NCBI GenBank assembly: GCA_963700285.1 | Contig: CAVOXA010000015.1 | Location: 192,001-256,000, forward strand | DNA: 64,000 nt | Direction of reading: 5' to 3' | Source of the DNA: an uncultured Chloroflexia bacterium | Lineage (GTDB): Bacteria; Chloroflexota; Anaerolineae; JAAYZQ01 | Shown here: one piece after another, positions 47,642 to 61,134 of the stretch | Position numbering within the stretch: position 1 is the stretch's first letter | Layout: every line of letters begins with the position of its first letter | Position numbers and translations under genes: made by a program | The notes under the pieces: generated by a model | What the model saw: the letters and a program-made list of their open reading frames with translations, nothing else | Databases searched by the model: none | What the model was told of the DNA's origin: nothing

Positions 47642-48070
47642 TCAGATCGACCCAACACCCTTGAGTGGATTGGGTCCCTTCGCTTTCAGGGTCGCCACCA
47701 TGTCAGTCACGGTGTCGGCAAAGTACTGGCCCTCGCTGGCGCTGATCCAGCGCAGCCAGACACGGTCGGAATCAAAGCCCATCTGGTCCAGGATATTCTG
47801 CAGAATGGCCATCCGGCGGCGGGCTTTGTAGTTGCCGCTCTGGTAGTGGCAGTCGCCGGGATGGCAGCCGCCGACGAGGACACCGTCGGCGCCCTCCAAC
47901 AGGGCTTTGGAGACATAGACCGGGTCCAGGCCGCCGGAGCACATGAGGCGGATGATGCGGATGTTGGGCGGGTACTGGATGCGAGAGGTACCCGCCAGGT
48001 CGGCACCGGTATAGGTGCACCAGTTGCACAGAAAGGCGATGATTCTGGGTTCAAACTCGGCCTCAGCCAT
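47642..48070 (-). CDS. mvhD: MvhD [2Fe-2S] subunit
   Basis: FLCNWCTYTGAD, RLMCSG, GADGVLVGGCHPGDCHY, WISASEG. Confidence 0.93.
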   Translation of the reverse strand: MAEAEFEPRIIAFLCNWCTYTGADLAGTSRIQYPPNIRIIRLMCSGGLDPVYVSKALLEGADGVLVGGCHPGDCHYQSGNYKARRRMAILQNILDQMGFDSDRVWLRWISASEGQYFADTVTDMVATLKAKGPNPLKGVGSI

Positions 48071-48667
48071 CTACTCCTCCCGGACGTCCAGGATTTCCAT
48101 ACCAAGGGCTTCCATAATGGCTACGAGCTTTTCGCTTGGCACATCGGCAACCTTTACGGTAACCATCCGGTTGGTGGGATCCTCTCCCCTAAACGTGCCC
48201 AAGGCCAAGACATTGCCCCCCATCGAGGCAATCTCACCGGTGAGACTGGCCAACATCCCCTTCTCTTCGGGTATCAGCATGGTGAGGCGTACACCTTGCT
48301 CTCTGGCGCCCAGCAACTCGAGGAAGACTTTGAACAGATCTGTTTCGGTGATGATCCCCACCAACCTCATGCCGCGCATAACGGGCAAACTGCTTATCTT
48401 TTGATCGGCCATGATGCGAGCTGCTTCTTCGAGGGCGGTATATTCGGTGACTGTGACCACGTCAATCGTCATGACTTCTTCGACTGAATCGTCGCTGCTG
48501 GCCCGTAGAAGGTCTTTTTCTGACACGATACCGATGAGTACGTCGTTGTTATCTAGGACCGGCAGGTGTCGTAGCTTGCGCTTTTCGACAATCTCCAGTG
48601 CCTGCCTGACGGTTGTCGCCCAGGTGATGGTCACTGGATTGGGTGTCATTCGCTCGATGATTAGCAT
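48071..48667 (-). CDS. CBS-pair plus ACT domain protein (AcuB-like)
   Basis: MTPNPVT..RHLPV..GIVSEKD, ISSLPV..GIITETD, C-terminal ACT (KGMLASLT). Confidence 0.88.
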   Translation of the reverse strand: MLIIERMTPNPVTITWATTVRQALEIVEKRKLRHLPVLDNNDVLIGIVSEKDLLRASSDDSVEEVMTIDVVTVTEYTALEEAARIMADQKISSLPVMRGMRLVGIITETDLFKVFLELLGAREQGVRLTMLIPEEKGMLASLTGEIASMGGNVLALGTFRGEDPTNRMVTVKVADVPSEKLVAIMEALGMEILDVREE

Positions 48668-48684
48668 ATCTTTTTCATCTCCTC

Positions 48685-51600
48685 CTACGACATGGCCATG
48701 TCAACAGCAGCCATCAGTTGTTTGTGCTCAAAGGTCTTTTGCAGGGTGGCCTTGTTGGGACAGACCATGGCGCACACCCCGCAGCCCTGGCACAAGACAT
48801 AATCCACGTCCGCCACCCGCGTGTCCTGGTTCATCACCCGCGCACCGTAGGGACAAGCTTCCTCGCACAGACCGCAGAAGCTGCACAGCCGTTCGTTGAC
48901 CCACACCGACGTTGGCCGGTCCTCCACCACCTCCGGCGCCAGAAAAGCCGCGGCCCGCATCGCCGCCCCCCGTCCCTGGACCAGCGTCTCTTCCAGGAAG
49001 CGGGGACTGTGGGCCAGCCCCGCCACATAGATGCCGCCCCCTTTCGCGCTCTGAAGATCCAGCGGCTTCATCTTGGCCTGCTCCTCCCGGAAAAAACCGT
49101 CGCCGTCCAACGTCAGCCCCAACTTTCCCGCCAGCGCCCCCTCTTCCTCAGCGTCGATGCCCACGCTAAGGACCAGCAATCCGGCTTCCAATACCAGCGA
49201 CTGTCCGGTCACCGGCTCGACGAGGCTCACCGCCAGCCGGTCCCCCTCCGCCCTGACGGCGGGCTTGTCCGGCACCTCGTAGCGCAGGAACACCACCCCC
49301 GCATCCCGCGCCGCCTGATAGTAGGCTTCGCGAAAGCCGTAGGTCCGCACCTCGCGGTAGAGGACATAGACCTCCAGCCTGGGCTTCAATTCCTTGAGCT
49401 TCAGGGCGTTCTTGACCGCCAGGGTACAGCATACCCGGCTGCAATAGGGCCGCTCCGGCTCCCGAGAACCAACACACTGGATCATGACTACCCGCTGCAC
49501 TGTGGCCAGCGTGCCGTCGGCGATCTGCTGCTCCAGCTCGCGCTGCGTCAGCACCCGCGGGTCCTGGCCGTAGAGGTATTCCTCCGTCACCGCTGGTCCG
49601 CCGCCGGTGGCCACCACCAGCACGCCGTGGTCCACCACCTCTTGCCGACCGTTCACGCCGACGGTCGTCCGATACTGGCCGGCTTTGCCCTGGTAGTCCA
49701 CCACTTCGGCGCCTAGATGAACCCTGATCCGCTCCTCAGCCGCCACCTGGGCGACCAAGTCAGCCAGGGCCGCCTGCGGATCACTGCCGTCGGCCTGATA
49801 GTGGATGTGACGCCACTGGCCGCCCAGGCTCGATTCCCGCTCCACCAGGACCACGGGAATGTCCAACCGGGCCAGGGCCAGCGCGGCCGCCATCCCCGCC
49901 GCCCCACCGCCAACCACCACCGCCCGGCGAGTCAGCGTTTGGCTACCGCCCAGCGCCAGGGCTTCCACCCCGGCCATGGTCCTCAGGCCGGCCACGGCCA
50001 TGCCTACCAGGGATCGGGCTTTCCCGACCTGGGCTTCCCGGGCCAGATCCGCCCCGTTGCCGCGGTGGGGGTAGACCACCTGCTCCCGCAGGTTGGCCCG
50101 CGCCAGCAGCCGGGGGTCCAGTCCGGCATCCCGCATTATCGCCTCGAATTCGCCGCCGAACAGCCGCGGCGAACAGCCGGCGACCACGACCCGGTTCAGT
50201 CCCTCAGACTCAATGGCCGCACCCATGGCGGCCCGCCCCTCCGGCGAGCAACCCTCCGGCACGGCCCGCGCCAGGGCCACCCCAGGCAGCTCCTTCGCCC
50301 AAGCTGCCAATTCTGGTACGCCAACAGGCGCCAGTTCGCCGTTGCACTCACAGACAAAGACCCCCACCCTGGGCTCCTCATCCGAAACGTCGCGATATCC
50401 TTCCGCTATCTGCCCTCTGTCGTCTGGCGTCCGTCGCCTGTCGCCGGATGCCTGCATCCGCTGTGTCTGTCCAGCCAGGTACCCCGCCACCTCAGCCGCC
50501 GCCCCCGCCGCCTCGGCCACCGTCTCGGGGATATCCTTTGGCTCGCGGAAAGCGCCGGCTACGAACACGCCAGGGTGGTCCATGTGCGTCGGCTGGTAGC
50601 CGCCCGTCCGGGCAAAGCCGTACTCGTTCAGCGCCACCCCCAGCTCGCGGGCCAGGGCCTGCATCCCTGCCGGAGGCGCCAAGCCCACCGCCAGTACCAG
50701 CAGGTCAAAGGCTTCCTCCCGCAGCTTGCCCTCTTCGCCCACGTAGGTTACGGCCAGGTCCCGCGTGCGCTGCCGCTGGTAGACCGACGAGGGCATGGCC
50801 CGCAGGTACCTCACCCCTGGCAACGCCTGCACCCCCTCTATGTAGGCCTCGAAATCCTTGCCAAAGGCGCGCAGGTCCATGGTAAAGACCGTCGCTTCCA
50901 GCTCCGGGTCCAACTCCTTGGCCAGGGCCACCTGCTTGGCCGTGTACATGCAGCAGACCGAGGAGCAGTAGCCCGCTCCGCAGAGGTTGTCCCGCGAGCC
51001 GACGCAGTGCACAAAGGCGACCCGCTTCGGTGCCTTGCCGTCCGACGGCCGGGCCAGGTGGGCCACGCTGGAGCCCGCCAGGCTGGCCATCCGTTCAAAC
51101 TCCAGGGCGGAGAGCACATTGTCATAGACCCCGTAGCCGTACTCACCCTTGACCCGGGCCTCAAAGGGCGCATAGCCGGGCGCCAGCAACACGGCGTCCA
51201 CGTCCAGGACCTGCTTGCGGTCCGCCATCTCCAGGTCGATGGCGCCGGTAGGGCAGGCATCCACGCAGGCGCCACAGCGGGTGCAGGTTTCCATGTCGAT
51301 GACCCAGGCATCGGGCACCGCCCGCAGTCCCGGGGGCCGGTAGATGGCCTTGACCGGCGAAAGCCTGCCCTCGTGGTCGTGGGGCCGGGCTTCGGGGCAG
51401 ACGGCGGCGCAGTCGCCACAGCCATTGCACCGGTCCACGTCCACGTAGCGGGCCTTGTGGTTGACAGTGACCTGGGGCGCCCCGTTTCCCGGTCCACCAG
51501 CACCCCAATCTACGGCCGAGACCTCGGCGTAGGGCAAGAGGTGGACATCCTCTCTGGCTTCGCACTCGAAGGTGGGGCAGAAAGCCGGCTGCCGGGGCAG

Positions 51601-51801
51601 CATGAGGCAGATGCCGCAAGAGTTGGTGGGAAAGGTATGGTCCAGCAGGTGCATCGAGCCGCCAATGGCCGGCGCGGCGTCCAGCAGGTAGACCTCGATG
51701 CCCAGCTCGGCCAGGTGCATCGCCGCTGCCATGCCGGCGATCCCCCCACCGGCGACCAGGACGCTGTGCTTGCCTTTGTCCAGTGAATCGGCTCTTTCCA
51801 C
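48685..51801 (-). CDS. hdrA: Large tandem HdrA-like protein with two FAD modules
   Basis: GGGIAG and GGGAAG; two CVGSR..YCS..CC motifs; internal VGVFVCEC domain; C-terminal ferredoxin. Confidence 0.9.
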   Translation of the reverse strand: MERADSLDKGKHSVLVAGGGIAGMAAAMHLAELGIEVYLLDAAPAIGGSMHLLDHTFPTNSCGICLMLPRQPAFCPTFECEAREDVHLLPYAEVSAVDWGAGGPGNGAPQVTVNHKARYVDVDRCNGCGDCAAVCPEARPHDHEGRLSPVKAIYRPPGLRAVPDAWVIDMETCTRCGACVDACPTGAIDLEMADRKQVLDVDAVLLAPGYAPFEARVKGEYGYGVYDNVLSALEFERMASLAGSSVAHLARPSDGKAPKRVAFVHCVGSRDNLCGAGYCSSVCCMYTAKQVALAKELDPELEATVFTMDLRAFGKDFEAYIEGVQALPGVRYLRAMPSSVYQRQRTRDLAVTYVGEEGKLREEAFDLLVLAVGLAPPAGMQALARELGVALNEYGFARTGGYQPTHMDHPGVFVAGAFREPKDIPETVAEAAGAAAEVAGYLAGQTQRMQASGDRRRTPDDRGQIAEGYRDVSDEEPRVGVFVCECNGELAPVGVPELAAWAKELPGVALARAVPEGCSPEGRAAMGAAIESEGLNRVVVAGCSPRLFGGEFEAIMRDAGLDPRLLARANLREQVVYPHRGNGADLAREAQVGKARSLVGMAVAGLRTMAGVEALALGGSQTLTRRAVVVGGGAAGMAAALALARLDIPVVLVERESSLGGQWRHIHYQADGSDPQAALADLVAQVAAEERIRVHLGAEVVDYQGKAGQYRTTVGVNGRQEVVDHGVLVVATGGGPAVTEEYLYGQDPRVLTQRELEQQIADGTLATVQRVVMIQCVGSREPERPYCSRVCCTLAVKNALKLKELKPRLEVYVLYREVRTYGFREAYYQAARDAGVVFLRYEVPDKPAVRAEGDRLAVSLVEPVTGQSLVLEAGLLVLSVGIDAEEEGALAGKLGLTLDGDGFFREEQAKMKPLDLQSAKGGGIYVAGLAHSPRFLEETLVQGRGAAMRAAAFLAPEVVEDRPTSVWVNERLCSFCGLCEEACPYGARVMNQDTRVADVDYVLCQGCGVCAMVCPNKATLQKTFEHKQLMAAVDMAMS
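50402..50443. repeat. Six degenerate 7-bp tandem repeats inside the hdrA linker
   Basis: TCCGCTA TCTGCCC TCTGTCG TCTGGCG TCCGTCG CCTGTCG (42 nt, frame-preserving). Confidence 0.6.
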
Positions 51802-51817
51802 GTTGAAAGCTCCTGCG

Positions 51818-52714
51818 CTAGACCAGGCCCAACCGGCCCAAGAGCGGCCGGGGGTTGACCAGGTGCTTGCCCAATACCTTTTTCAAAGACAGACCATAGG
51901 CCAAGGCCATCAACTCGGTGAAGTAAAAGATGGGCAGCGGTTCATAACCGGGTTTGGGTGGTCGCGGCAGCGGCGGTCCGCCGCGGTAAAGCTGCCGCCC
52001 ATCGACGTTGGCCATGCACATAGGGCAGGCCGTGACCAGGGCATCGGCCCCCGCCTCGTGGGCGGCGATGGCCAGTCTGTCCACCAGATGGACCACTACG
52101 TCGCTGCGGTTCAGGGTCAGGCTGCCGCCGCAGCAGTCCACGCCGTAGCTCCAGGGCATCGCCTCGGCGCCCATCAGCTCGATGATATGGTCCATCGTCT
52201 GCGGGTGCTCCGGGTCGTCCCAGCGACCGGTATACTTGGGCGGCCGGATGAGCAGGCAGCCATAGTAGGCTGCGACCTTTAGGCCTTCCAGCGGCGCCTT
52301 GACCCTGGCCGTCAACGCCTCCCTGGACAGGTCGTTGGCCAGGATGTCCAGCAGGCTGCGGGGCCGCACCCGGCCTTCATACTCAAAGTCCAGCACCGAC
52401 TCCATCCTGGCCCGGAAGGCGCCGTCCTGCTGCAGGGCCAGGTCGGCGGCTGCCAGCCGCGAGTAGCAGGCCGCGCAGGGGATGGCCATATCGTCCAGGC
52501 CCACTTTCTGCGCCTGGGCCAGGTTGCGGGCTGGCAGGGCCAGAAAGAGGGCGGGATCCATAGAGTGGGCCGACGACGCCCCGCAGCAGTTCCAGTCGGG
52601 GATCTCGACCATCTCCAGGTCCAGCGCCTGGCAGACCAGCTCGCTGCTGACCCCAAACTCCACGCCCGTCGAATGCAGCGTGCAGCCCGGATAGAAGGCA
52701 TACCGTCTCGTCAT
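51818..52714 (-). CDS. hdrB: Heterodisulfide reductase subunit B
   Basis: FYPGC, DWNCCGA, CAACY, YYGCLL.RP, CCGG, CPMC..N.D. Confidence 0.93.
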   Translation of the reverse strand: MTRRYAFYPGCTLHSTGVEFGVSSELVCQALDLEMVEIPDWNCCGASSAHSMDPALFLALPARNLAQAQKVGLDDMAIPCAACYSRLAAADLALQQDGAFRARMESVLDFEYEGRVRPRSLLDILANDLSREALTARVKAPLEGLKVAAYYGCLLIRPPKYTGRWDDPEHPQTMDHIIELMGAEAMPWSYGVDCCGGSLTLNRSDVVVHLVDRLAIAAHEAGADALVTACPMCMANVDGRQLYRGGPPLPRPPKPGYEPLPIFYFTELMALAYGLSLKKVLGKHLVNPRPLLGRLGLV

Positions 52715-52721
52715 CCCGACC

Positions 52722-53261
52722 TCACCCTGAATCCTCATCCCCCAGCTCAAACAGTTCCTTGACCTGGCCGATGTTCTGGATGCGCTTGGGCAGGGGATGG
52801 ATCTTGCCCTTGAGGAACATGTCCAACCCCATGTCCAGGTTGCTGAACAGGTCGCGGCTGGTGAGCTTGTGCTGGAGGATCATGGTCAATTCGTGCAGCC
52901 GGCCCCAGGTGCGGATGCTGTCCAGAAAGGCCTGGTGCAGCTTGAACACCGATTGCTCTGCCGGGCTGACCCCTTCGGCCAGGGCGATGTGGCGCAGGGC
53001 GTCGATGACGGCGCCGGGGTGGATCTCGTTGGGGCAACGCGTGCCGCAGGTCTCGCAGCCGATGCACAGCCAGATGGCCGAGGAGCGAAGGAGGGCGTCC
53101 TTCTGACCCAGTTGGACCAAACGCAAGATCTGGGCCGGCGTGTATTCCATGGCGTAAGCCGACGGGCAGCCTGCCGAGCAGCGCAGGCAGTAGTAGCAGC
53201 GGCTTACGTTCTGCTGGCTCAGTTCGCTGACCTGTCTGATGAAGGTCAAGTCTGGATCCAT
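52722..53261 (-). CDS. hdrC: Heterodisulfide reductase subunit C
   Basis: CYYCLRCSAGCP, IWLCIGCETCGTRCP, GRLHEL. Confidence 0.92.
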   Translation of the reverse strand: MDPDLTFIRQVSELSQQNVSRCYYCLRCSAGCPSAYAMEYTPAQILRLVQLGQKDALLRSSAIWLCIGCETCGTRCPNEIHPGAVIDALRHIALAEGVSPAEQSVFKLHQAFLDSIRTWGRLHELTMILQHKLTSRDLFSNLDMGLDMFLKGKIHPLPKRIQNIGQVKELFELGDEDSG

Positions 53262-53580
53262 GGCTCCGTCCCTCGCCAAGTGTTCACCCTATTGGCGGTA
53301 CCTGGTCCCTCACTACTCGGTCTTGCTGCCCATTTCACAAACGAAAACTGCCCACGCGGCCTGCTAGGGCCAGCCTGGGCAGCATAGATCAGTTGCATGC
53401 GTGACGGCGGTCACCCTTCTGCAACAAGGACGCTGTCTCCTGCTGCACCGATCTGCGTCTCGCCCCCTGATTTCCAGGTTCCTATGGTTGGCCACAAAGC
53501 CGATCAAGTGAGATCCCTTTCCTATGGGCATCACCACACTGCTCTTGGCCTTGGAGCCCCCATTGACCCCAATACGCCGG

Positions 53581-53590
53581 TATTATACCA
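53581..53590 (-). promoter_or_regulatory. Extended -10 element about 320 nt upstream of hdrC
   Basis: TGGTATAAT on the minus strand. Confidence 0.45.
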
Positions 53591-53682
53591 TACCTCCCGG
53601 ATTCCGCAAACTCCAGGGATCCTCACTGACTGGCAGTCATTCACTGACTACCGATAGGCCATCCAGCCTTCTGCTGACAAGT

Positions 53683-53784
53683 CTATTCCCGCCGCGCTTT
53701 CATGGCGAGCACGATGCTCCCGACAACGAGCAACAACAGCAAGAGGATGATGACGCACTCGGCCGCCCCAACACGAAAAAACAT
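53683..53784 (-). CDS. 33-aa single-TM small protein (below the ORF track size range)
   Basis: MFFRVGAAECVIILLLLLLVVGSIVLAMKARRE, with GAGG RBS and its own promoter (TTGAGA-N16-TATACT, 53870-53897). Confidence 0.6.
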   Translation of the reverse strand: MFFRVGAAECVIILLLLLLVVGSIVLAMKARRE

Positions 53785-53907
53785 TAGGCCCCTCATTCTT
53801 GGCTACACCTCACGTTTTGTGCACAACGTGGGGGTTCCGGCATTCTGGACTACAATCCAACACGGCACCAGTATAGCACAACTGCATTCTGTCTCAAAAG
53901 GTATCAT

Positions 53908-53936
53908 TTGACAAGTCCCGCCGCGTGAGTTATACT
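53908..53936 (+). promoter_or_regulatory. sigma70 promoter of glnA
   Basis: TTGACA-N17-TATACT. Confidence 0.75.
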
Positions 53937-54030
53937 TGCCGCCAATAATTTGTATCCAAAATAGGCACGGGGGTTTCTGTCTGGCCAGGCCCAAACCCCT
54001 GCTGCCCTATCTGACTATAGGAGTTGACCT

Positions 54031-55368
54031 ATGACGACAAAAGAAGAGATCACCCGCCGCGTGGCCGAGAAAGGCATCGAATTCATCAGCCTGCAGTTCA
54101 CCGACATCGTGGGATTGGTCAAGAGCGTAACCATTCCAGTTGAGGAGTTAGAGACCGCCCTGGATCGCGGCATCTGGTTCGATGGCTCTTCGGTGGAGGG
54201 TTTTGCCCGCATTGCCGAGAGTGACATGTATCTGGTCCCTGACCTGGATACCTTCTCGGTCATTCCTTGGGAGCAAGATAGCGGTGCAACCGCCCGTTTC
54301 ATCTGCGACGTCTACACACCTTCCGGCGAACCATTCCCAGGCGATCCCCGCCAGGTCCTCAAACGTGCCATACAGGAAGCCGCGGCGCTGGGGCTGAGCT
54401 ATCACGCCGGACCGGAGCCAGAGTTCTTTCTCTTCAAGCGGGATGAGGATGGCGAGGCCGTGCCCCGGCCTCACGATCAAGGTGGTTATTTCGATCTCTC
54501 GACGGATCGCGGGGTCGAGGTGCGCAAGAGGATGGTCAGGGCGCTGTCCGCCTTTGGCATCCGGGTCGAAGCCAGCCACCACGAGGTTGCCACCGGCCAG
54601 CACGAGATCGACTTTCGCTACACCGACGCCCTGCGCGCCGCAGACAACGTAGTCACCTTCAAGGCGACGCTCAAGCAGGTCGCTCGACAGCATGGCTTGC
54701 ACGCGACCTTTATGCCAAAACCAATTGCGGGCATCAGTGGTTCAGGCATGCATGTCCACCAGAGCTTGGTACGCATCGATAACGGCGAGAATGCGTTCGC
54801 TGACAATGGGGACGAGATTGGTATCTCAAAATTGGCCCGTCAATTCGTCGCTGGCCAGTTGGCCCACGCCCGAAATATGTGTGCGGTGCTATCCCCCCTG
54901 GTCAACTCCTACAAGCGCTTGGTCCCCGGTTACGAGGCGCCGGTGTACGTCAGTTGGGGACAGATCAATCGCTCGGCGCTGATCCGTGTACCACAAGTGA
55001 CTCCCGACCGGCCCGAGTCTACACGATTGGAGATCCGCTGCCCCGATCCCAGTTGTAACCCTTATCTGGCCTTCGCCGTTATGCTGCGGGCAGGATTGGA
55101 CGGCATCCATCGGGAGCTGGGAGCGCCAGCTATCTCGAATGAAGATCTGTACCACCTGGACGATCAAGGACGTGAGGCGCGTGGATTGGATACGCTGCCA
55201 GGCTCCCTGGGTGAGGCGCTAGAAGAACTAAAGCGCGACGAGCTCATGCTCGAAGCGCTGGGCGAACACATCTACGAGCGGTTCATCGAAGCCAAGACCA
55301 TCGAGTGGCAGGAATACTTGACCCAGGTCAGCAGCTGGGAGCTGGAGCGCTATTTGCGCGTATACTAG
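54031..55368 (+). CDS. glnA: Glutamine synthetase type I
   Basis: FDGSSVEGF, GPEPEFF, HHEVATGQHEI, FMPKP..GSGMHVHQS, NSYKRLVPGYEAP, NRSALIRVP, RLEIRCPD. Confidence 0.95.
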   Translation: MTTKEEITRRVAEKGIEFISLQFTDIVGLVKSVTIPVEELETALDRGIWFDGSSVEGFARIAESDMYLVPDLDTFSVIPWEQDSGATARFICDVYTPSGEPFPGDPRQVLKRAIQEAAALGLSYHAGPEPEFFLFKRDEDGEAVPRPHDQGGYFDLSTDRGVEVRKRMVRALSAFGIRVEASHHEVATGQHEIDFRYTDALRAADNVVTFKATLKQVARQHGLHATFMPKPIAGISGSGMHVHQSLVRIDNGENAFADNGDEIGISKLARQFVAGQLAHARNMCAVLSPLVNSYKRLVPGYEAPVYVSWGQINRSALIRVPQVTPDRPESTRLEIRCPDPSCNPYLAFAVMLRAGLDGIHRELGAPAISNEDLYHLDDQGREARGLDTLPGSLGEALEELKRDELMLEALGEHIYERFIEAKTIEWQEYLTQVSSWELERYLRVY

Positions 55369-55475
55369 CCCTCAGTGTCGGGGCGCCCGGGCTTGGGCGT
55401 GACACGGCAACCCTGAGCAACCTTGTAGCCAGGCCCGACAGGTTGCCTAGACCTGTCGGGCCTGGTTGGGCCGGC

Positions 55476-55952
55476 CTAGAGGTGTTTGGCAAAGATGAAC
55501 AGGTCATCGCCAGGCGCGTAAAAGTCGCGGACCGATGCCTCGAGGCCGAAGCCGCTGGAGCTATAGAGCCTCCTCGCCGCAGCATAGGGCGCGGTGCTGG
55601 ACGTTTCGACAAGCAGCAACCGCCCGCCTCGCGCCCGTACCTCGGCTTCCACCTGTGCCATCAGGCCATGGCCCATGCCATGCCCCTGGACAGCTGGACC
55701 GACGGCGATCCAGTACAGGTCATAGGTCCCATCGGTCAGTGGGTGCGGCCCAAAACAAGCGTAGCCCTGGGCCGGACAGCCATCTTGGCTGGCAACCAGG
55801 AACACGTATCCGCTTGTTTCCTGCTTATCTTGGTACGCGTTCCAGAGCTCGAGAACACAGTCCCGTTCTGTAGGGTTGAAGATGCCAATCTGGCCTGTGA
55901 TCTCCAGGATGGATGGGCCATGGCTGGGCAACGCCTGCTCGATCGTGTGCAT
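55476..55952 (-). CDS. GNAT family N-acetyltransferase
   Basis: YDLYWIAV.P..QGHGMG, VETSS..Y..AR.LY...GF, DFYAPGDD. ATG at 55952. Confidence 0.88.
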   Translation of the reverse strand: MHTIEQALPSHGPSILEITGQIGIFNPTERDCVLELWNAYQDKQETSGYVFLVASQDGCPAQGYACFGPHPLTDGTYDLYWIAVGPAVQGHGMGHGLMAQVEAEVRARGGRLLLVETSSTAPYAAARRLYSSSGFGLEASVRDFYAPGDDLFIFAKHL

Positions 55953-56970
55953 AGAACTGTCTCCAGGCAAACTCGACAATCTGTTCCGCCATTTCACCAT
56001 AGCTGTACCCAGCCGTCCTGGCGGCGCGAAAGAATCCTGCATCTGGTGAAAGGTCCGGATTGCAGTTGACTTCTACGACGTAAGGTACACACTCTTCGCT
56101 CAAGCGCATGTCCACGCGGGCATAGCCATGGCAGCCGAGGGCATGCCAGGCCCGTAACGCCGTGGCAGTAATGCAGACCCCCACCTCTGATTCTAGCGGG
56201 GCTGGGCAGAGCACCGGCGTGTTCCGGTACTCAAAGCTCTCTTCCTCCCACTTGGCGGCAAAAGACACGATGCGCTCGTACGGGTCGGAAAAGGCGCAAA
56301 AGTCGATCTCAGCCAGCGGCAACACCTGAGGAGGATCTCCCCAGATGGAAACGTTGAATTCTCGCCCCACCACAAAGGCCTCCGCCAGGGCCGTCTGCCT
56401 ATAAGCATCCACAACGTAGGCGATCCGCTCACGCAGCGCGCCCACCGTATGGACCACTGCCTCCGGCCCCACGCCGATGCTTGCATCCTCGGCGACCGGC
56501 TTGACGATGAGTGGGAAGGACAGTTCGTCGATCCGCTCCTGCACCTCGTCGGGGTGGCAAAACAGCCACCACGCTGGAGTGGGCACGTCGTTATCCAGCA
56601 ACAGGTCCTTTGTTTTGGCCTTGTGCGCACCATGGGCTATGGCGCTCCCACCAGATCCGGTGAAACAGTAGCCCATGGCGCCCAGAGCCCAGGCAATGCG
56701 CGCTTCCTCAAAGAGCTTGCCTGCCAAGCCCTCGGCCAGGTTAAAGACGGTCCATTGGCTGGGGGGATACGGGGTTAGGGTCGTCTCCACGTCGCCGTAG
56801 AGGGGTACCCCGGTCACCCGGTAGCCCCTGGCGCACAAGGCATCTATCACGGCTTGGGCGCAAGCGATGACGCCCTGCTCGGCCAAAAGATCCCGTGCCT
56901 CGCCTTTGATCAGATCGGCACTGGCGTTGTACAGCACTGCAATCCCCGGGGATTGCCAGTTCGTTCTCAT
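55825..56970 (-). CDS. Ddl-like ATP-grasp ligase
   Basis: FNLAEG, FTGS, FPLIVKP..EDAS.G, GREFNV, SFAAKW, GYARVDMR, EVNCNPDL. Start at ATG 56970. Confidence 0.88.
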   Translation of the reverse strand: MRTNWQSPGIAVLYNASADLIKGEARDLLAEQGVIACAQAVIDALCARGYRVTGVPLYGDVETTLTPYPPSQWTVFNLAEGLAGKLFEEARIAWALGAMGYCFTGSGGSAIAHGAHKAKTKDLLLDNDVPTPAWWLFCHPDEVQERIDELSFPLIVKPVAEDASIGVGPEAVVHTVGALRERIAYVVDAYRQTALAEAFVVGREFNVSIWGDPPQVLPLAEIDFCAFSDPYERIVSFAAKWEEESFEYRNTPVLCPAPLESEVGVCITATALRAWHALGCHGYARVDMRLSEECVPYVVEVNCNPDLSPDAGFFRAARTAGYSYGEMAEQIVEFAWRQFYAHDRAGVAQPWPIHPGDHRPDWHLQPYRTGLCSRALERVPR

Positions 56971-59615
56971 CCCACACCTCCTAGGGTCAGGGGCGCCAGC
57001 AATGGTGGAGTCAGGCCACCTGGCCTCAAGTGATCCTGGCCAACACTCCAGAGCGGAGGCCTGTAGCTGGGCGCTTTGAGTCCGTACCGCTCCGCGGCCA
57101 GGTAGAGGATCTCGTTGATCATTTCGTCGTAGGCCAACGCCTCCGCCCGGGCCATTATGCACAAATCACTGGAAACCGGGTTCATGCCCGGCAGCGTATT
57201 GATCTCCATCAAGTAGGGCTGGCCGTCGCTCCCCAAGCGAAAGTCCACCCGGCTGACGTCGAACGCTCCCAAGGCCTCAAAGGCTTCTACGGCCAGTTCT
57301 TTGAGCCTAGCTTCCAGGTCCGGCGGGATGTCTGCGGGACAAAAGTAGTTGGGGGCCTCTTCCTCGCCTGGAAGATAAGACTTGGAGACAGCATTGTAAA
57401 AGCCCGCATTGTCACCCACGTTGGCGTCGATCTCCAGGATGGGGAAGACGTGGAACCCTCGCCGGTCGTACAGGTCACTGCGTCGTACTGCCCGTGGCGC
57501 TTGTGAGTTGCCAAAAAAGCCTACTGTGAACTCCCTCCCGGACAGGTAGCTCTCCACCAGCGCCGGTTGGTGATAGACGTCTATCGCCCACCGCACCTGG
57601 CGTCGCAATTCGGCCTCGGTATGCACTACCGATTGGCTATTGATGCCCATACCGGTGCCCTCTCGTAGCGGCTTGACGAACAGTGGAAAAGCCAGAAGGT
57701 GGTCCAGCGCTTCCTCGCCCGTGCGAAAGACTTGGAACGGCGATGTGGGCAGGCCCATGTCGCGCCAGATACGCTTGGCGGCCGCCTTGTCCAGCGACAG
57801 GGTGTGGCCCGATACCTGAGAAGCGCTAAAGGGAATACCCAACATCTGCAACACTGCCGGCACGTGAGACTCGCGGGCCTCACCCTGCATGCCTTCGGCG
57901 ATGTTAAAGCAGATGTCCGGGGCCGCCTGCCGTACAGTATCGAGAAAAGTCCCATCCGCTTCCAGTCGGATCACCTGATGCCCACCCACGCGCAGCGCGG
58001 TCTCCAACGCATTCACGGTTTCCAACGAGTCGTACTCGGCAAGGGCATCCGGAGGCGCTCCGGGAGCGGCCTCCACATTGGCCTTGAGGTTGTAGACCAA
58101 GCCCACACGCCACCCCCGCCGCTGGATCCTGTTTTTTATGTTCACAGCCCCAACTGTGTGGGGCCGGGGTAGCTTCGGCCGGCCGGTTGTTTTGGATACG
58201 GCTTTGTTGTCGCCCGAATCCATAGTCCAGAGCGGTTTCCAGTGTCCATTGCCATTACTGCCGGGCAGCGCCAACCGAGCTGGCACGACCTGCGACTCAT
58301 CTCCTCGTTGGTGGAGAGAGCGCCACCCCTCGGGTGCGATGGTACGCGCTTCACCGGTCAGTAGCCCAGCCACGCCTTCTTGCTTCCCCTCGCTGCGGTG
58401 GGCTTGGCAGTAGCCGCAGGTGGCGGGGTCGTGGGCGGTGTAGACCGGTGGTTGCGCGTAGGCGCTAACAAAGCCCTCAAAGTTGCGCACCACTGCCATC
58501 TGGTCAGACATGCTGAGGAGGTAATTGGGCTGGATCGGTACCTTGCCGCCACCTTCCGGTGCATCGATGACAAATGTTGGTACGGCAAGACCTGAAGTAT
58601 GGCCGCGCAGCGATTCGATGATCTCCATGCCCTTGGCAACCGGTGTTCGGAAATGACCCGCGCCGTGGACCAGATCGCACTGGTAGATGTAATAGGGACG
58701 CACCCGATTCTGCACCAGCCGATGGACCAGCTTCCGCATGACATTGGGGCAGTCATTGATCCCGGCCAGAAGCACTGTCTGGCTTCCCAGAGGAATGCCG
58801 GCATCCGCCAGGAGCGCCAGTGCGGCCTCGACCTCTGGCGCGATCTCTTTGGGGTGGTTGAAGTGGATGTTCATCCACAGGGGATGGTACCGGCGCAGCA
58901 TCGCCACCAGGTCTTCAGTGATACGCTGGGGAAGAAAGACCGGTACCCGCGTTCCGATGCGGATGATCTCCACATGGCGAATCTCTCGAAGACGCGCTAG
59001 CAGACTCTCCAGCACCCGCTGAGGCAGGGCCAGGGGATCACCGCCGGAGATCAATACATCCCGGATCTGAGGGCTGGCGGCGATGTACGCAATCTGCGCC
59101 TCGTGCTGGCTCGTGCTGAACTGGATGTGTGGATCTCCCACCATCCGGCTCCGGGTACAAAAGCGACAGTAGCTGGCGCACTGCGTGGTGACCAGCATCA
59201 ACACCCGGTCGGGGTAGCGATGGACGAGCCCCGCCACGGGCGAATGGGCGTCCTCGGACAGGGCGTCTGCCATCTCGGCTTCGAATGGCAGGGCCTCACG
59301 GCCGGTGGGGATGACCTGGCGCCGGATGGGACAATTGGGATCGTCGGGATCGATCAGACTTGCGAAATGGGGGGTGGTTTCTGCACGAAAGCAGTCTGGG
59401 GCTGCAAGACCTGCAACTTCTTCGGGAGTGAGGTGGATCAACCGCGCAAAGTCGTCCAGGGTGCTCAGGCGGTTGGACAACTGCCAGCGCCAGTCGCCCC
59501 ATGTGGACGGCGAAGCGTCCAGCCACGGAGGGGGAGGTTCATCTGTACCGGGAGGTTCCTCCAATTCAGCCAAGTTTTCTTGCTCGCTCATTCTGGTTGA
59601 CTCGCTCCTACCCAT
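56967..59615 (-). CDS. kamA: KamA-family lysine 2,3-aminomutase fused to a C-terminal Ddl-like ATP-grasp domain
   Basis: HRYPDRVL, CASYCRFCTR, SGGDPL, RIGTR, YQCD, IDAPEGGGK. Later VYNLK..AEYDS, FNIAEG, PLFVKP, GREFTV, RVDFR, EINTLPG in the same ORF. Confidence 0.88.
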   Translation of the reverse strand: MGRSESTRMSEQENLAELEEPPGTDEPPPPWLDASPSTWGDWRWQLSNRLSTLDDFARLIHLTPEEVAGLAAPDCFRAETTPHFASLIDPDDPNCPIRRQVIPTGREALPFEAEMADALSEDAHSPVAGLVHRYPDRVLMLVTTQCASYCRFCTRSRMVGDPHIQFSTSQHEAQIAYIAASPQIRDVLISGGDPLALPQRVLESLLARLREIRHVEIIRIGTRVPVFLPQRITEDLVAMLRRYHPLWMNIHFNHPKEIAPEVEAALALLADAGIPLGSQTVLLAGINDCPNVMRKLVHRLVQNRVRPYYIYQCDLVHGAGHFRTPVAKGMEIIESLRGHTSGLAVPTFVIDAPEGGGKVPIQPNYLLSMSDQMAVVRNFEGFVSAYAQPPVYTAHDPATCGYCQAHRSEGKQEGVAGLLTGEARTIAPEGWRSLHQRGDESQVVPARLALPGSNGNGHWKPLWTMDSGDNKAVSKTTGRPKLPRPHTVGAVNIKNRIQRRGWRVGLVYNLKANVEAAPGAPPDALAEYDSLETVNALETALRVGGHQVIRLEADGTFLDTVRQAAPDICFNIAEGMQGEARESHVPAVLQMLGIPFSASQVSGHTLSLDKAAAKRIWRDMGLPTSPFQVFRTGEEALDHLLAFPLFVKPLREGTGMGINSQSVVHTEAELRRQVRWAIDVYHQPALVESYLSGREFTVGFFGNSQAPRAVRRSDLYDRRGFHVFPILEIDANVGDNAGFYNAVSKSYLPGEEEAPNYFCPADIPPDLEARLKELAVEAFEALGAFDVSRVDFRLGSDGQPYLMEINTLPGMNPVSSDLCIMARAEALAYDEMINEILYLAAERYGLKAPSYRPPLWSVGQDHLRPGGLTPPLLAPLTLGGVG

Positions 59616-60000
59616 GGACAGAGCTCCCTTCGACGCACTGCGAAGAGAGCCCTTGTAGTCGCGCTCAAGAGATTGATAGCACGACTATTGTGTCCACGCT
59701 TCCATTGAATTTGTTGCATGATCATACCCCGGTCCTGTCCCAAAGCCATAGGAAAAAGCTATCAAGAGGGTGGAAAACCAGTCTGGATCATACGATTCCT
59801 GCAATTACCCGGATCCTGGTTCAAGAAGCCCACCACCATAGGGTCGTGATGGAGCCTCTGAGTGGAAGGCGCATGGAGACGAGGCTATAAGATAGAGGGT
59901 TGGGGGCTGATGGCGAGTGTTGATGCTAGTTCAAACCCGTACGGGACAGAGTTGCTCTCGCAACCGAACAATGCTATAATCCCAGCTATGAGAGCCGGAC

Positions 60001-61134
60001 ATGTATATCCAACCGCGTAAGAAGAGGCGATCCTCGCCCGTCAGGGTGTTCATCCTGCTGGTGCTTATTGGCATCGGGGTGTACATCCTGGTTTGGCGGC
60101 GCGACGACATGCTTCAGCCTATTCAGGTCGGCCCCACGCCCACACCAACGCCTACAGCCAATGATGTTATGACCGAGGCGCACGAACTCTACCGTGAGGG
60201 GCTATTGGATGAGGCCATCGCCAAGTATAGTGAGGCCGCCGCGCTAGATCCCTCTGACCCGATAGCCTACGTCTGGTGGTCGCACTTGCTGACACTCCGC
60301 CAGAGTACGGCAGAAGGGGTGGAGAAAGCCCGGGAGGCGGTAGGTATTGCCCCAGACAGCGCCGAAGCGTTGGCGGCCTTGTGCATGGCCCTCGATTGGG
60401 ATGCGGGAATCGGAGACCAGTCCAAGCTCCAGGAGGCCCTGGGCGCCTGCCTGAGCGCCATAGACCTCGACCCGGGATATGCCGAAGCGCATGCCTACCT
60501 GGCCGAGGTCTATGCCGACCTGGGCCAGAAGACCCAAGCCGCGGAGACGGCCCGCCTGGCCGTCAGCCTGGATGATAGCAGCGTCTTTGCCCACCGAGAC
60601 TTGGGCTACGCGCTGGAAAAACAGCGCAATTATCAGGACGCTGTCGCTGAATACCAGCGTGCCTCCCAACTGCATCCCCGGCTGGCCCAACCCTACGTCG
60701 ATCTGGGCCGCATTCACATGTCCCACAACCGTTACAAAGATGCGTTGTCGGCCTATGAGAAAGCGACCGTGGTAGAGCCAACCAGCGCCCACGCCCTAGA
60801 TTCCCTGGGCCAGGCCTACTTTAATACCGGCGACTACCAGCGAGCGGTGGTAGTCCTAAAAAAGGCAACCGAAGTTGATCCATCCTATGTCCCTGCCTAT
60901 GGGCATTTGGGCCTATCCTACTATATCCTGCGCAACTACGAAGACGCCATTGACATGTATCAGCAGGCTTTCGATCTGGGGGCCACCGAACTCGAGTACT
61001 ATTACGAATTGGGTCTGTCTTACGCCTTTCTAGATCGCTGTGATGAAGCACGACCCTGGCTGCTAAAGGCTATCGAGCTTGACTCCACTGCCTGGCCGGC
61101 TTGGGAAGGGTTGGACCTCTGTCCTGAAGAATAG
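60001..61134 (+). CDS. Membrane-anchored TPR repeat protein
   Basis: N-terminal TM helix, PTPTPTPT linker, multiple TPR-like repeats; TGcTATAAT at 59972-59980. Confidence 0.88.
   Translation: MYIQPRKKRRSSPVRVFILLVLIGIGVYILVWRRDDMLQPIQVGPTPTPTPTANDVMTEAHELYREGLLDEAIAKYSEAAALDPSDPIAYVWWSHLLTLRQSTAEGVEKAREAVGIAPDSAEALAALCMALDWDAGIGDQSKLQEALGACLSAIDLDPGYAEAHAYLAEVYADLGQKTQAAETARLAVSLDDSSVFAHRDLGYALEKQRNYQDAVAEYQRASQLHPRLAQPYVDLGRIHMSHNRYKDALSAYEKATVVEPTSAHALDSLGQAYFNTGDYQRAVVVLKKATEVDPSYVPAYGHLGLSYYILRNYEDAIDMYQQAFDLGATELEYYYELGLSYAFLDRCDEARPWLLKAIELDSTAWPAWEGLDLCPEE

Follow-up and report, generated by a model that had tools for sequence, protein, structure and literature searches.

Genes of the cassette

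The DNA analyzed here is a 64,000-nucleotide stretch (the window; positions count from its first letter) of contig CAVOXA010000015.1, GenBank assembly GCA_963700285.1, from an uncultured Chloroflexia bacterium whose relatives are placed by source records in Chloroflexota/Anaerolineae. Its minus strand carries a cassette of three consecutive genes: a fusion of a KamA domain (lysine 2,3-aminomutase type) with a Ddl-fold ATP-grasp ligase, here called ligase 1 (56967 to 59615); a second such ligase, ligase 2 (55825 to 56970); and a small GNAT protein (55476 to 55952). The fused open reading frame runs for 882 codons without a stop and contains Radical_SAM (residues 141 to 289), LAM_C (333 to 440), and Dala_Dala_lig_C (616 to 837) domains. 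Together with the alignment given below, this bears out a preliminary description that had read a complete KamA and a Ddl-like ATP-grasp in one 882-amino-acid frame.

The closest homologue begins at Met9 (59591), which may be the true start and would give a protein of 874 residues. The N-terminal extension of KamA (59523 to 59591, minus strand) carries the EEPPG/EPPPPW motif typical of the clade, and an EPP motif is found at this end in 81 of 112 sequences compared. EEPPG is also present in the KamA N termini of loci L039, L040, L041, and L044, with two to three repeats in some loci, and is a candidate docking motif or ribosome-pausing signal. The two domains are joined by a stop-free linker of about 60 residues (58110 to 58300, minus strand; about residues 440 to 500). 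Previously described as low-complexity, the linker does join the domains but is variable rather than strictly low-complexity, differing in length and sequence among fused homologues, and it likely tethers both enzymes without a fixed interface. A model of the whole fusion, built from an alignment of 8 rows, reached a predicted local distance difference test (pLDDT) score of 34.7.

The fusion is real and not an artifact. A search for KamA-ATP-grasp fusions, as had been proposed, returned five full-length homologues (P0004 to P0008; 63 to 82% identity; three sources) and two partial ones (P0009 and P0038) among the 120 matches listed. Fused genes also occur in 2 of 80 metagenome loci, which are near-identical copies (L161 and L162). 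Contigs of run X1, which may not be independent of the assembly, match 58084 to 58318 and 58295 to 58571 with no differing letters or gaps; the stop or indel looked for near 58140 to 58300 is absent from these contigs across the linker. The fused homologues, fused metagenome loci, and linker contigs together exclude an assembly artifact. Programmed readthrough was also rejected, as unfused kamA-ligase 1 junctions fall in all three phases (53, 27, and 25 of 105).

The 401 sampled genomes of the host's class gave 217 ligase-1 matches; of the 150 listed, the host's alone sits in a frame of about 900 codons. Related genomes in this sample are not independent, so the counts given here and below are not statistical tests. 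A quick tree of 82 ligase-1 domains places all 8 fused rows within one subclade and requires 5 changes for them, at least 3 of these forced by strong branches, so the fusion has repeatedly arisen or been lost. The fused gene of the two metagenome loci has a Cys-rich protein on its 3' side (L161:3403-4176; L162:3700-4473), which by eye resembles a DUF3109-like domain fused to the ligase-2-like protein P0320.

The KamA domain

Residues 32 to 431 of the fusion (58323 to 59522, minus strand) align with the lysine 2,3-aminomutase (LAM) of C. subterminale (PDB 2A5H) at 485 bits. The CxxxCxxC cluster motif (C146, C150, and C153), the pyridoxal phosphate (PLP) lysine in GGGK (K358, equivalent to K337), C-terminal zinc-type cysteine, and LAM_C (PF12544) are all present. 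R155, D314, and D351 align with R134, D293, and D330 of 2A5H, which we take to be the substrate residues of LAM. The two aspartates are those of YQCD and IDAPEGGGK, correctly equated with the LAM aspartates in the preliminary description, and their equivalents are kept in all phyla sampled. R135 of 2A5H corresponds to S156. A lysine model scores 518 bits for this domain versus 418 and 378 bits for glutamate and arginine models, and the EpmB-type model TIGR03821 gives 229 bits against a cut-off of 369. Judged by its family, the KamA domain likely forms beta-lysine from L-lysine.

Two ATP-grasp ligases with rebuilt pockets

The ligase 1 domain (57066 to 58109, minus strand) has an intact catalytic set (K610, K648, E688, E695, K745, R789, D791, E804, and N806). 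Ligase 2 (381 residues, minus strand) is a paralogue with about 29% identity to ligase 1; it starts at 56970 and, as noted previously, overlaps the end of the fusion by 4 nucleotides (ATGA). Both were compared with E. coli DdlB at a catalytic set (K97, K144, E180, E187, K215, R255, D257, E270, and N272) and at D-Ala pocket positions (H63, E68, S150, Y216, and S281/L282), whose respective roles we take as given. Both ligase families keep every DdlB residue for ATP, Mg, and acyl phosphate, and residue 15 stays acidic. Because these residues are intact, both ligases are likely active, and family knowledge suggests acyl-phosphate chemistry.

The D-Ala pocket is changed in both. Ligase 1 has E574 in place of H63, R581 in place of E68, S746 in place of Y216, and D817 in place of L282. 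Ligase 2 has E80 for H63, A163 for S150, W241 for Y216, D306 for G276, A311 for S281, and G312 for L282, as well as G149D. Position 63 is Glu in 100% of 143 ligase-1 and 99% of 105 ligase-2 sequences; the ligase-1 family has gained an invariant E68R and mostly L282D/C, and the ligase-2 family has G276D in 97% of sequences and has lost S281/L282. All Ddl and Van models score below cut-off for both ligases, and neither keeps the full set of D-Ala pocket residues. The added acids on the donor and acceptor sides would fit substrates with several amines and an acceptor without a carboxylate. A structure model of ligase 1 (pLDDT 93.9) has Ddl enzymes as its nearest folds (Z 28 to 33; for 8EVV, Z 32.8, root mean square deviation 2.6 Å, 303 aligned), with LysX/ArgX at Z 23.4 to 23.6 and PylC also in the fold list.

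The GNAT protein and its overlap with ligase 2

The GNAT gene (minus strand) encodes 158 residues. Its start is likely the ATG at 55952 and not 56042, since a GGAGA lies 7 nucleotides upstream and homologues begin there. An overlap with ligase 2 had been described and is indeed present, but the shifted start sets it at 128 nucleotides: ligase 2 reads its last 42 or so codons (55825 to 55952) into GNAT in another frame. A tail of this length ends 75 of 121 ligase-2 sequences (query counted), and 8 of 72 other loci measured have the 128-nucleotide overlap; in most close relatives this out-of-frame overlap ends at one place. A functional domain in the tail is not supported, as it is the other frame of GNAT and is absent in other lineages. 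One RNA-library contig matches 55735 to 55970 exactly; such contigs cover parts of the locus and are not proof of transcription. The protein belongs to the family of PDB 2R7H (E = 1e-51; next match, 5e-10), a record entitled "putative D-alanine N-acetyltransferase of GNAT family" that names no substrate, and it is not AblB.

A self-standing core and an optional add-on

To the genome counts we added a comparison of 66 loci from class genomes (drawn from 60 of the 150 listed matches and 8 loci found earlier, with 2 left out), 80 metagenome loci, and the 80 best loci from other phyla. For other phyla, 7 of the collection's 64 parts were scanned, from which some 5500 stretches are estimated to have the ligase-2 pattern; part of these may not be cassettes.

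Ligase 1 is present in 206 of the 401 genomes and kamA in 232, with both in 200 and neither in 163. The GNAT family occurs in 140 genomes, 134 of them with kamA, and is missing from 82 of the 200 genomes with kamA and ligase 1, including the single-contig, 99%-complete genomes G138 and G221. Of the 66 class-genome loci, 32 have kamA and ligase 1 only, 16 have all four genes, and 15 have ligase 1 alone, with kamA elsewhere in the genome in all five of the latter genomes tested. Ligase 2 is the neighbor of unlinked GNAT genes in 4 of 6 loci of one set examined and in 7 of 9 of another, the latter including one ligase 2-GNAT fusion within a full cassette. Such fusions are found in L026, L288, and 7 of 149 representatives, and double-ligase proteins make up 25 of the 149. 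Of the same 149, 11 are ligase-2-like proteins of about 500 to 530 residues that lack the cassette GNAT; two of these were tested, and each has a GNAT of another type.

The co-occurrence of the core genes, the core genomes without GNAT, and fusions along the same split show that KamA and ligase 1 form a self-standing core to which ligase 2 and GNAT are an optional add-on. The kamA-linked two-ligase/GNAT cassette of the preliminary description is thus confirmed, but its reading as one three-step line is not, as the second half is not obligatory. The proposed search for kamA-ddl-ddl-GNAT synteny found the four genes together in Chloroflexota and beyond: 58 of the 80 other-phyla loci have all four, and 70 have kamA. 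These four-gene loci come from Ignavibacteria/Bacteroidota (most rows), Kryptonia, Aminicenantes, and Eubacteriales (Firmicutes); deltaproteobacterial and Bathyarchaeia loci have kamA with one or both ligases. Stygiobacter electus (locus L105) is a carrier that has been cultured.

The host genome, which is 89% complete, has one kamA. A genome of the same genus lacks ligase 1, kamA, ligase 2, and GNAT, and the host family has kamA and ligase 1 of another subclade (11 of 15) without GNAT (0 of 15). On these grounds, the cassette was likely acquired sideways.

Several loci show other arrangements. L012 (6946-10672) has three tandem ligase-2-like ATP-grasp genes with no kamA or GNAT nearby. In the deltaproteobacterial loci L129 (817-8020), L116, and L141, a PAS kinase, a sigma-54 regulator, and a receiver protein lie between the ligase-1 gene and kamA. 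In L027 (6856-8721) a truncated ligase 1 runs in frame into a response regulator, a putative fusion or an assembly error. Two groups of matches were set aside as other systems. On a Thioflavicoccus mobilis plasmid (L079:3653-9134), genes for a diaminobutyrate transaminase, SbnA, a cyclodeaminase, and a Ddl-like ATP-grasp converge on a KamA-family gene, a candidate for another diamino-acid amide pathway. The other group consists of single ATP-grasp genes on 13 rhizobial plasmids with about 35% identity to ligase 1; the two examined (L077 and L078) sit among insertion sequences.

A proposed route to beta-lysyl amides

In the pathway that we propose, the KamA domain would convert L-lysine to beta-lysine, and the ligase 1 domain would use ATP to form beta-lysyl phosphate. 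The activated group would then be passed to an amine acceptor, for which a polyamine/diamine or another (beta-)lysine is the best candidate, to give an amide. Where the add-on is present, ligase 2 would form a second amide and GNAT would acetylate an amine, a step that a deacetylase may reverse in some lineages. We hold it moderately probable that the core makes a small beta-lysyl amide to an amine, likely polyamine or lysine, followed by optional extension and acetylation. It is likewise a proposal that beta-lysine donates the carboxyl group, as are the nature of the acceptor, the order of steps, and the role of the product, which might be a small cationic or acetyl-masked metabolite, such as a solute or a nucleic-acid-binding polycation.

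The accessory genes and the pocket changes favor a polyamine- or lysine-type amine partner over an ordinary amino-acid peptide. The beta-lysyl di- or tripeptide suggested earlier therefore holds as a ligase pathway but gives way in its choice of partner. A deacetylase gene follows the cassette on its 3' side and the same strand in 17 loci (16 of 80 from metagenomes and 1 of 66 from class genomes; 2 are partial and many are near-copies). The best PDB matches of its product are the acetylpolyamine amidohydrolases 9GKZ, 6PHR, 3MEN, and 3Q9B, and the gene is present in 46 of the 206 ligase-1 genomes versus 3 of the 163 with neither core gene (12 families). This amidohydrolase and the LysW-like acidic-tail proteins considered below point to a cationic product. 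A bolder version is possible but doubtful: anaerobes would make beta-lysyl polyamine or oligo-beta-lysine polycations, switched by acetyltransferase and deacetylase, which in Chloroflexota would be loaded on or buffered by LysW-like proteins, with the fused gene as a minimal one-protein synthase.

Several observations weigh against a beta-lysyl amide to a polyamine- or lysine-type amine. The KamA domain scores 518.5 bits with TIGR03820, below the cut-off of 525.4, and has lost R135 of LAM to Ser. Among the 232 kamA genomes, 16 have neither ligase 1 nor GNAT, and another count of 16 have GNAT without a ligase-1 match at 1e-55; in one of the latter, G218, a divergent ligase 1 was then found. The cassette GNAT has no specific likeness to known polyamine acetyltransferases (8A9O at only E = 2e-5), and the second GNAT type matches SpeG only weakly, below PseH and AAC(6'). 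The deacetylase adjoins the cassette in just one class-genome locus and might equally act on an acetyl-beta-lysyl group, so it is no proof of a polyamine. In the host genome no close amidohydrolase homologue is found at E ≤ 1e-70 (the best match has 148 bits, versus more than 570 for those linked to cassettes), and the spermidine-synthase family gives a weak match of 40 bits.

Alternative readings

Ligase 1 might instead act like LysX and couple beta-lysine to the acidic tail of a LysW-like zinc ribbon protein, as carrier or final target, which we consider unlikely. LysW-like genes (PF21344) accompany 19 of the 66 class-genome loci and 28 of the 80 metagenome loci, lying on the opposite strand in 4 of the latter. 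They stay with the cassette through rearrangements: they may precede kamA, ligase 1, or the other fused gene (L161/L162), or follow either ligase. The only PF21344 match of genome G148 adjoins ligase 1. The host genome keeps two LysW-like acidic-tail genes on another contig (L270, C1:1454977-1456309), both behind a winged-helix response-regulator-type gene of the family that precedes the cassette in relatives; they are, however, unlinked to the cassette. No LysW-like gene is found in the 80 other-phyla loci with a profile built from Chloroflexota. The tails are rich in D, E, and W and variable, without the EDWGE end seen in the true LysW of relatives, and several PF21344 paralogues also occur in genomes without ligase 1 (G001 and G013), with about ten matches in the cassette-less G001. 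The ligase-1 model is also nearer to Ddl than to LysX/ArgX.

Similarly unlikely is a change of direction or substrate: beta-lysine may offer its amine to some other acid, or the substrate of the aminomutase may be another diamino acid or the ligase product, in the manner of PylB/PylC. The Ser at position 135, found in most Chloroflexota members (TRSR in 105 of 118), and the score just under the TIGR03820 cut-off are consistent with another substrate, and the invariant Arg of ligase 1 at DdlB position 68 could hold a carboxylate. The equivalents of D293, D330, R134, and K337 are nonetheless kept, the lysine model scores above those for glutamate and arginine, and 2 of 5 full-length unfused cassette relatives tested pass the TIGR03820 cut-off (561 and 528 bits).

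The cassette could also make acetyl-beta-lysine as an osmolyte, for which an aminomutase plus an acetyltransferase is the known route according to PMC11337218; the linked deacetylase would suit this product. We find it quite improbable, as the 158-residue GNAT has no TIGR03827 match, moves together with ligase 2, to which it is also fused in places, rather than with kamA, and is missing from the 82 core genomes noted above. A search for ablB (TIGR03827) in the 89%-complete host genome was also negative, with positive controls. Lysine fermentation genes were considered as well: kamD (PF09043) was not found in the host genome in a search that gave no match in any control genome, and its three BKACE genes lie in other contexts.

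That the ligases, like Van ligases, make an unusual dipeptide with beta-lysine that is destined for the cell envelope is suggested by their Ddl fold and sequence kinship but is very unlikely: a canonical ddl in the mur/fts cluster of the host genome (246 bits) keeps E15, H63, E68, S150, Y216, and S281, neither Mur ligases nor transporters are recurrent neighbors of the cassette in different lineages, and the cassette is also found in Bathyarchaeia loci. Finally, ligase 1 might replace EpmA and beta-lysylate elongation factor P (EF-P), as TIGR00462 finds no epmA above cut-off in the host genome and KamA N termini carry EPP/PPG motifs, but we reject this on the single EF-P of the host, which reads HHKPGRGKA with Arg at the position of Lys34, named as the modified residue in PMC12856214. 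The absence of ablB, the Arg tip of EF-P, and the separate ddl uphold the earlier view of a beta-lysine-linked ATP-grasp pathway distinct from AblAB, EF-P modification, and cell-wall Ddl.

Relation to known systems

The cassette belongs to none of the negamycin, PylB/PylC, AblAB, Ddl/Van, EpmAB, or LysW/LysX systems, although it shares features with several. With KamA/AblA (2A5H; TIGR03820) the fusion shares a full-length alignment, the cluster motif, the PLP lysine, and the substrate Arg/Asp/Asp, but it differs in R135, in its proline-rich acidic N-terminal extension, in the attached ligase, and in scoring 518.5 versus 525.4 bits. The Ddl family (DdlB, DdlA, and VanA) has the same fold and all the ATP, Mg, and acyl-phosphate residues; the cassette ligases depart from it at H63, E68, Y216, and L282 (ligase 1) and at H63, S150, Y216, G276, S281, and L282 (ligase 2). 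The many Chloroflexota loci in which an ATP-grasp ligase has a LysW-like zinc ribbon as its neighbor resemble LysW/LysX (PDB 3VPB and 5K2M), whereas the missing EDWGE end, the Ddl-like ligase, the absence from other-phyla loci, and the lack of linkage in the host genome set the cassette apart. For the GNAT, the shared family is that of 2R7H.

In pyrrolysine biosynthesis, PylB and PylC carry out a radical lysine rearrangement followed by ATP-grasp amide formation. The core would follow the same logic as negamycin biosynthesis, whose cluster combines beta-lysine formation with an ATP-grasp enzyme (bioRxiv 10.1101/2025.05.27.656397). Unlike in either system, no hydrazine, hydroxylase, or Pyl genes recur nearby, the ligases are of the Ddl branch, and the cassette is common in anaerobes and not a rare specialized cluster. 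AblA/AblB also place an aminomutase and an acetyltransferase in one operon (PMC11337218 and PMC3543383), but the cassette GNAT is not AblB, is dispensable, and is tied to ligase 2, and two ATP-grasp ligases are present.

The cassette is a real, uncharacterized, and very common pathway of the kind that forms ATP-grasp amides on a beta-amino acid, and the host copy has its core naturally fused, which is rare. Searches of the open-access literature found no description of the gene set; subscription papers were outside their scope, as were supplements, which may list it. A beta-lysine-linked ligase that databases name D-alanine ligase is found in 206 of 401 class genomes and several other phyla. 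If the proposed pathway is right, anaerobes of sediments and digesters very commonly have a metabolite that still lacks a name, and a purpose could be assigned to many orphan kamA genes; PMC6522883 describes the role of KamA in B. subtilis as open. Given the natural fusion and the KamA-ligase 1 core, a single protein and a few amines would be enough for an initial experiment.

Flanking DNA

Upstream of the cassette we found no convincing sigma-70 promoter and no operator repeats, and Rfam gave no match at 53000 to 61000. A long, near-perfect hairpin (55429 to 55466) lies between the convergent glnA and GNAT stops; one of its arms has 7 matches in the genome, and it is likely a transcript end or a short repeated element. 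The glnA gene encodes a type I glutamine synthetase (54031 to 55368, plus strand) and is absent beside related cassettes, so its adjacency is likely due to chance. Farther along, a heterodisulfide-reductase-like cluster (HdrC/B/A, an MvhD-like protein, and a CBS protein, as judged from translations) occupies 47642 to 53279 on the minus strand.

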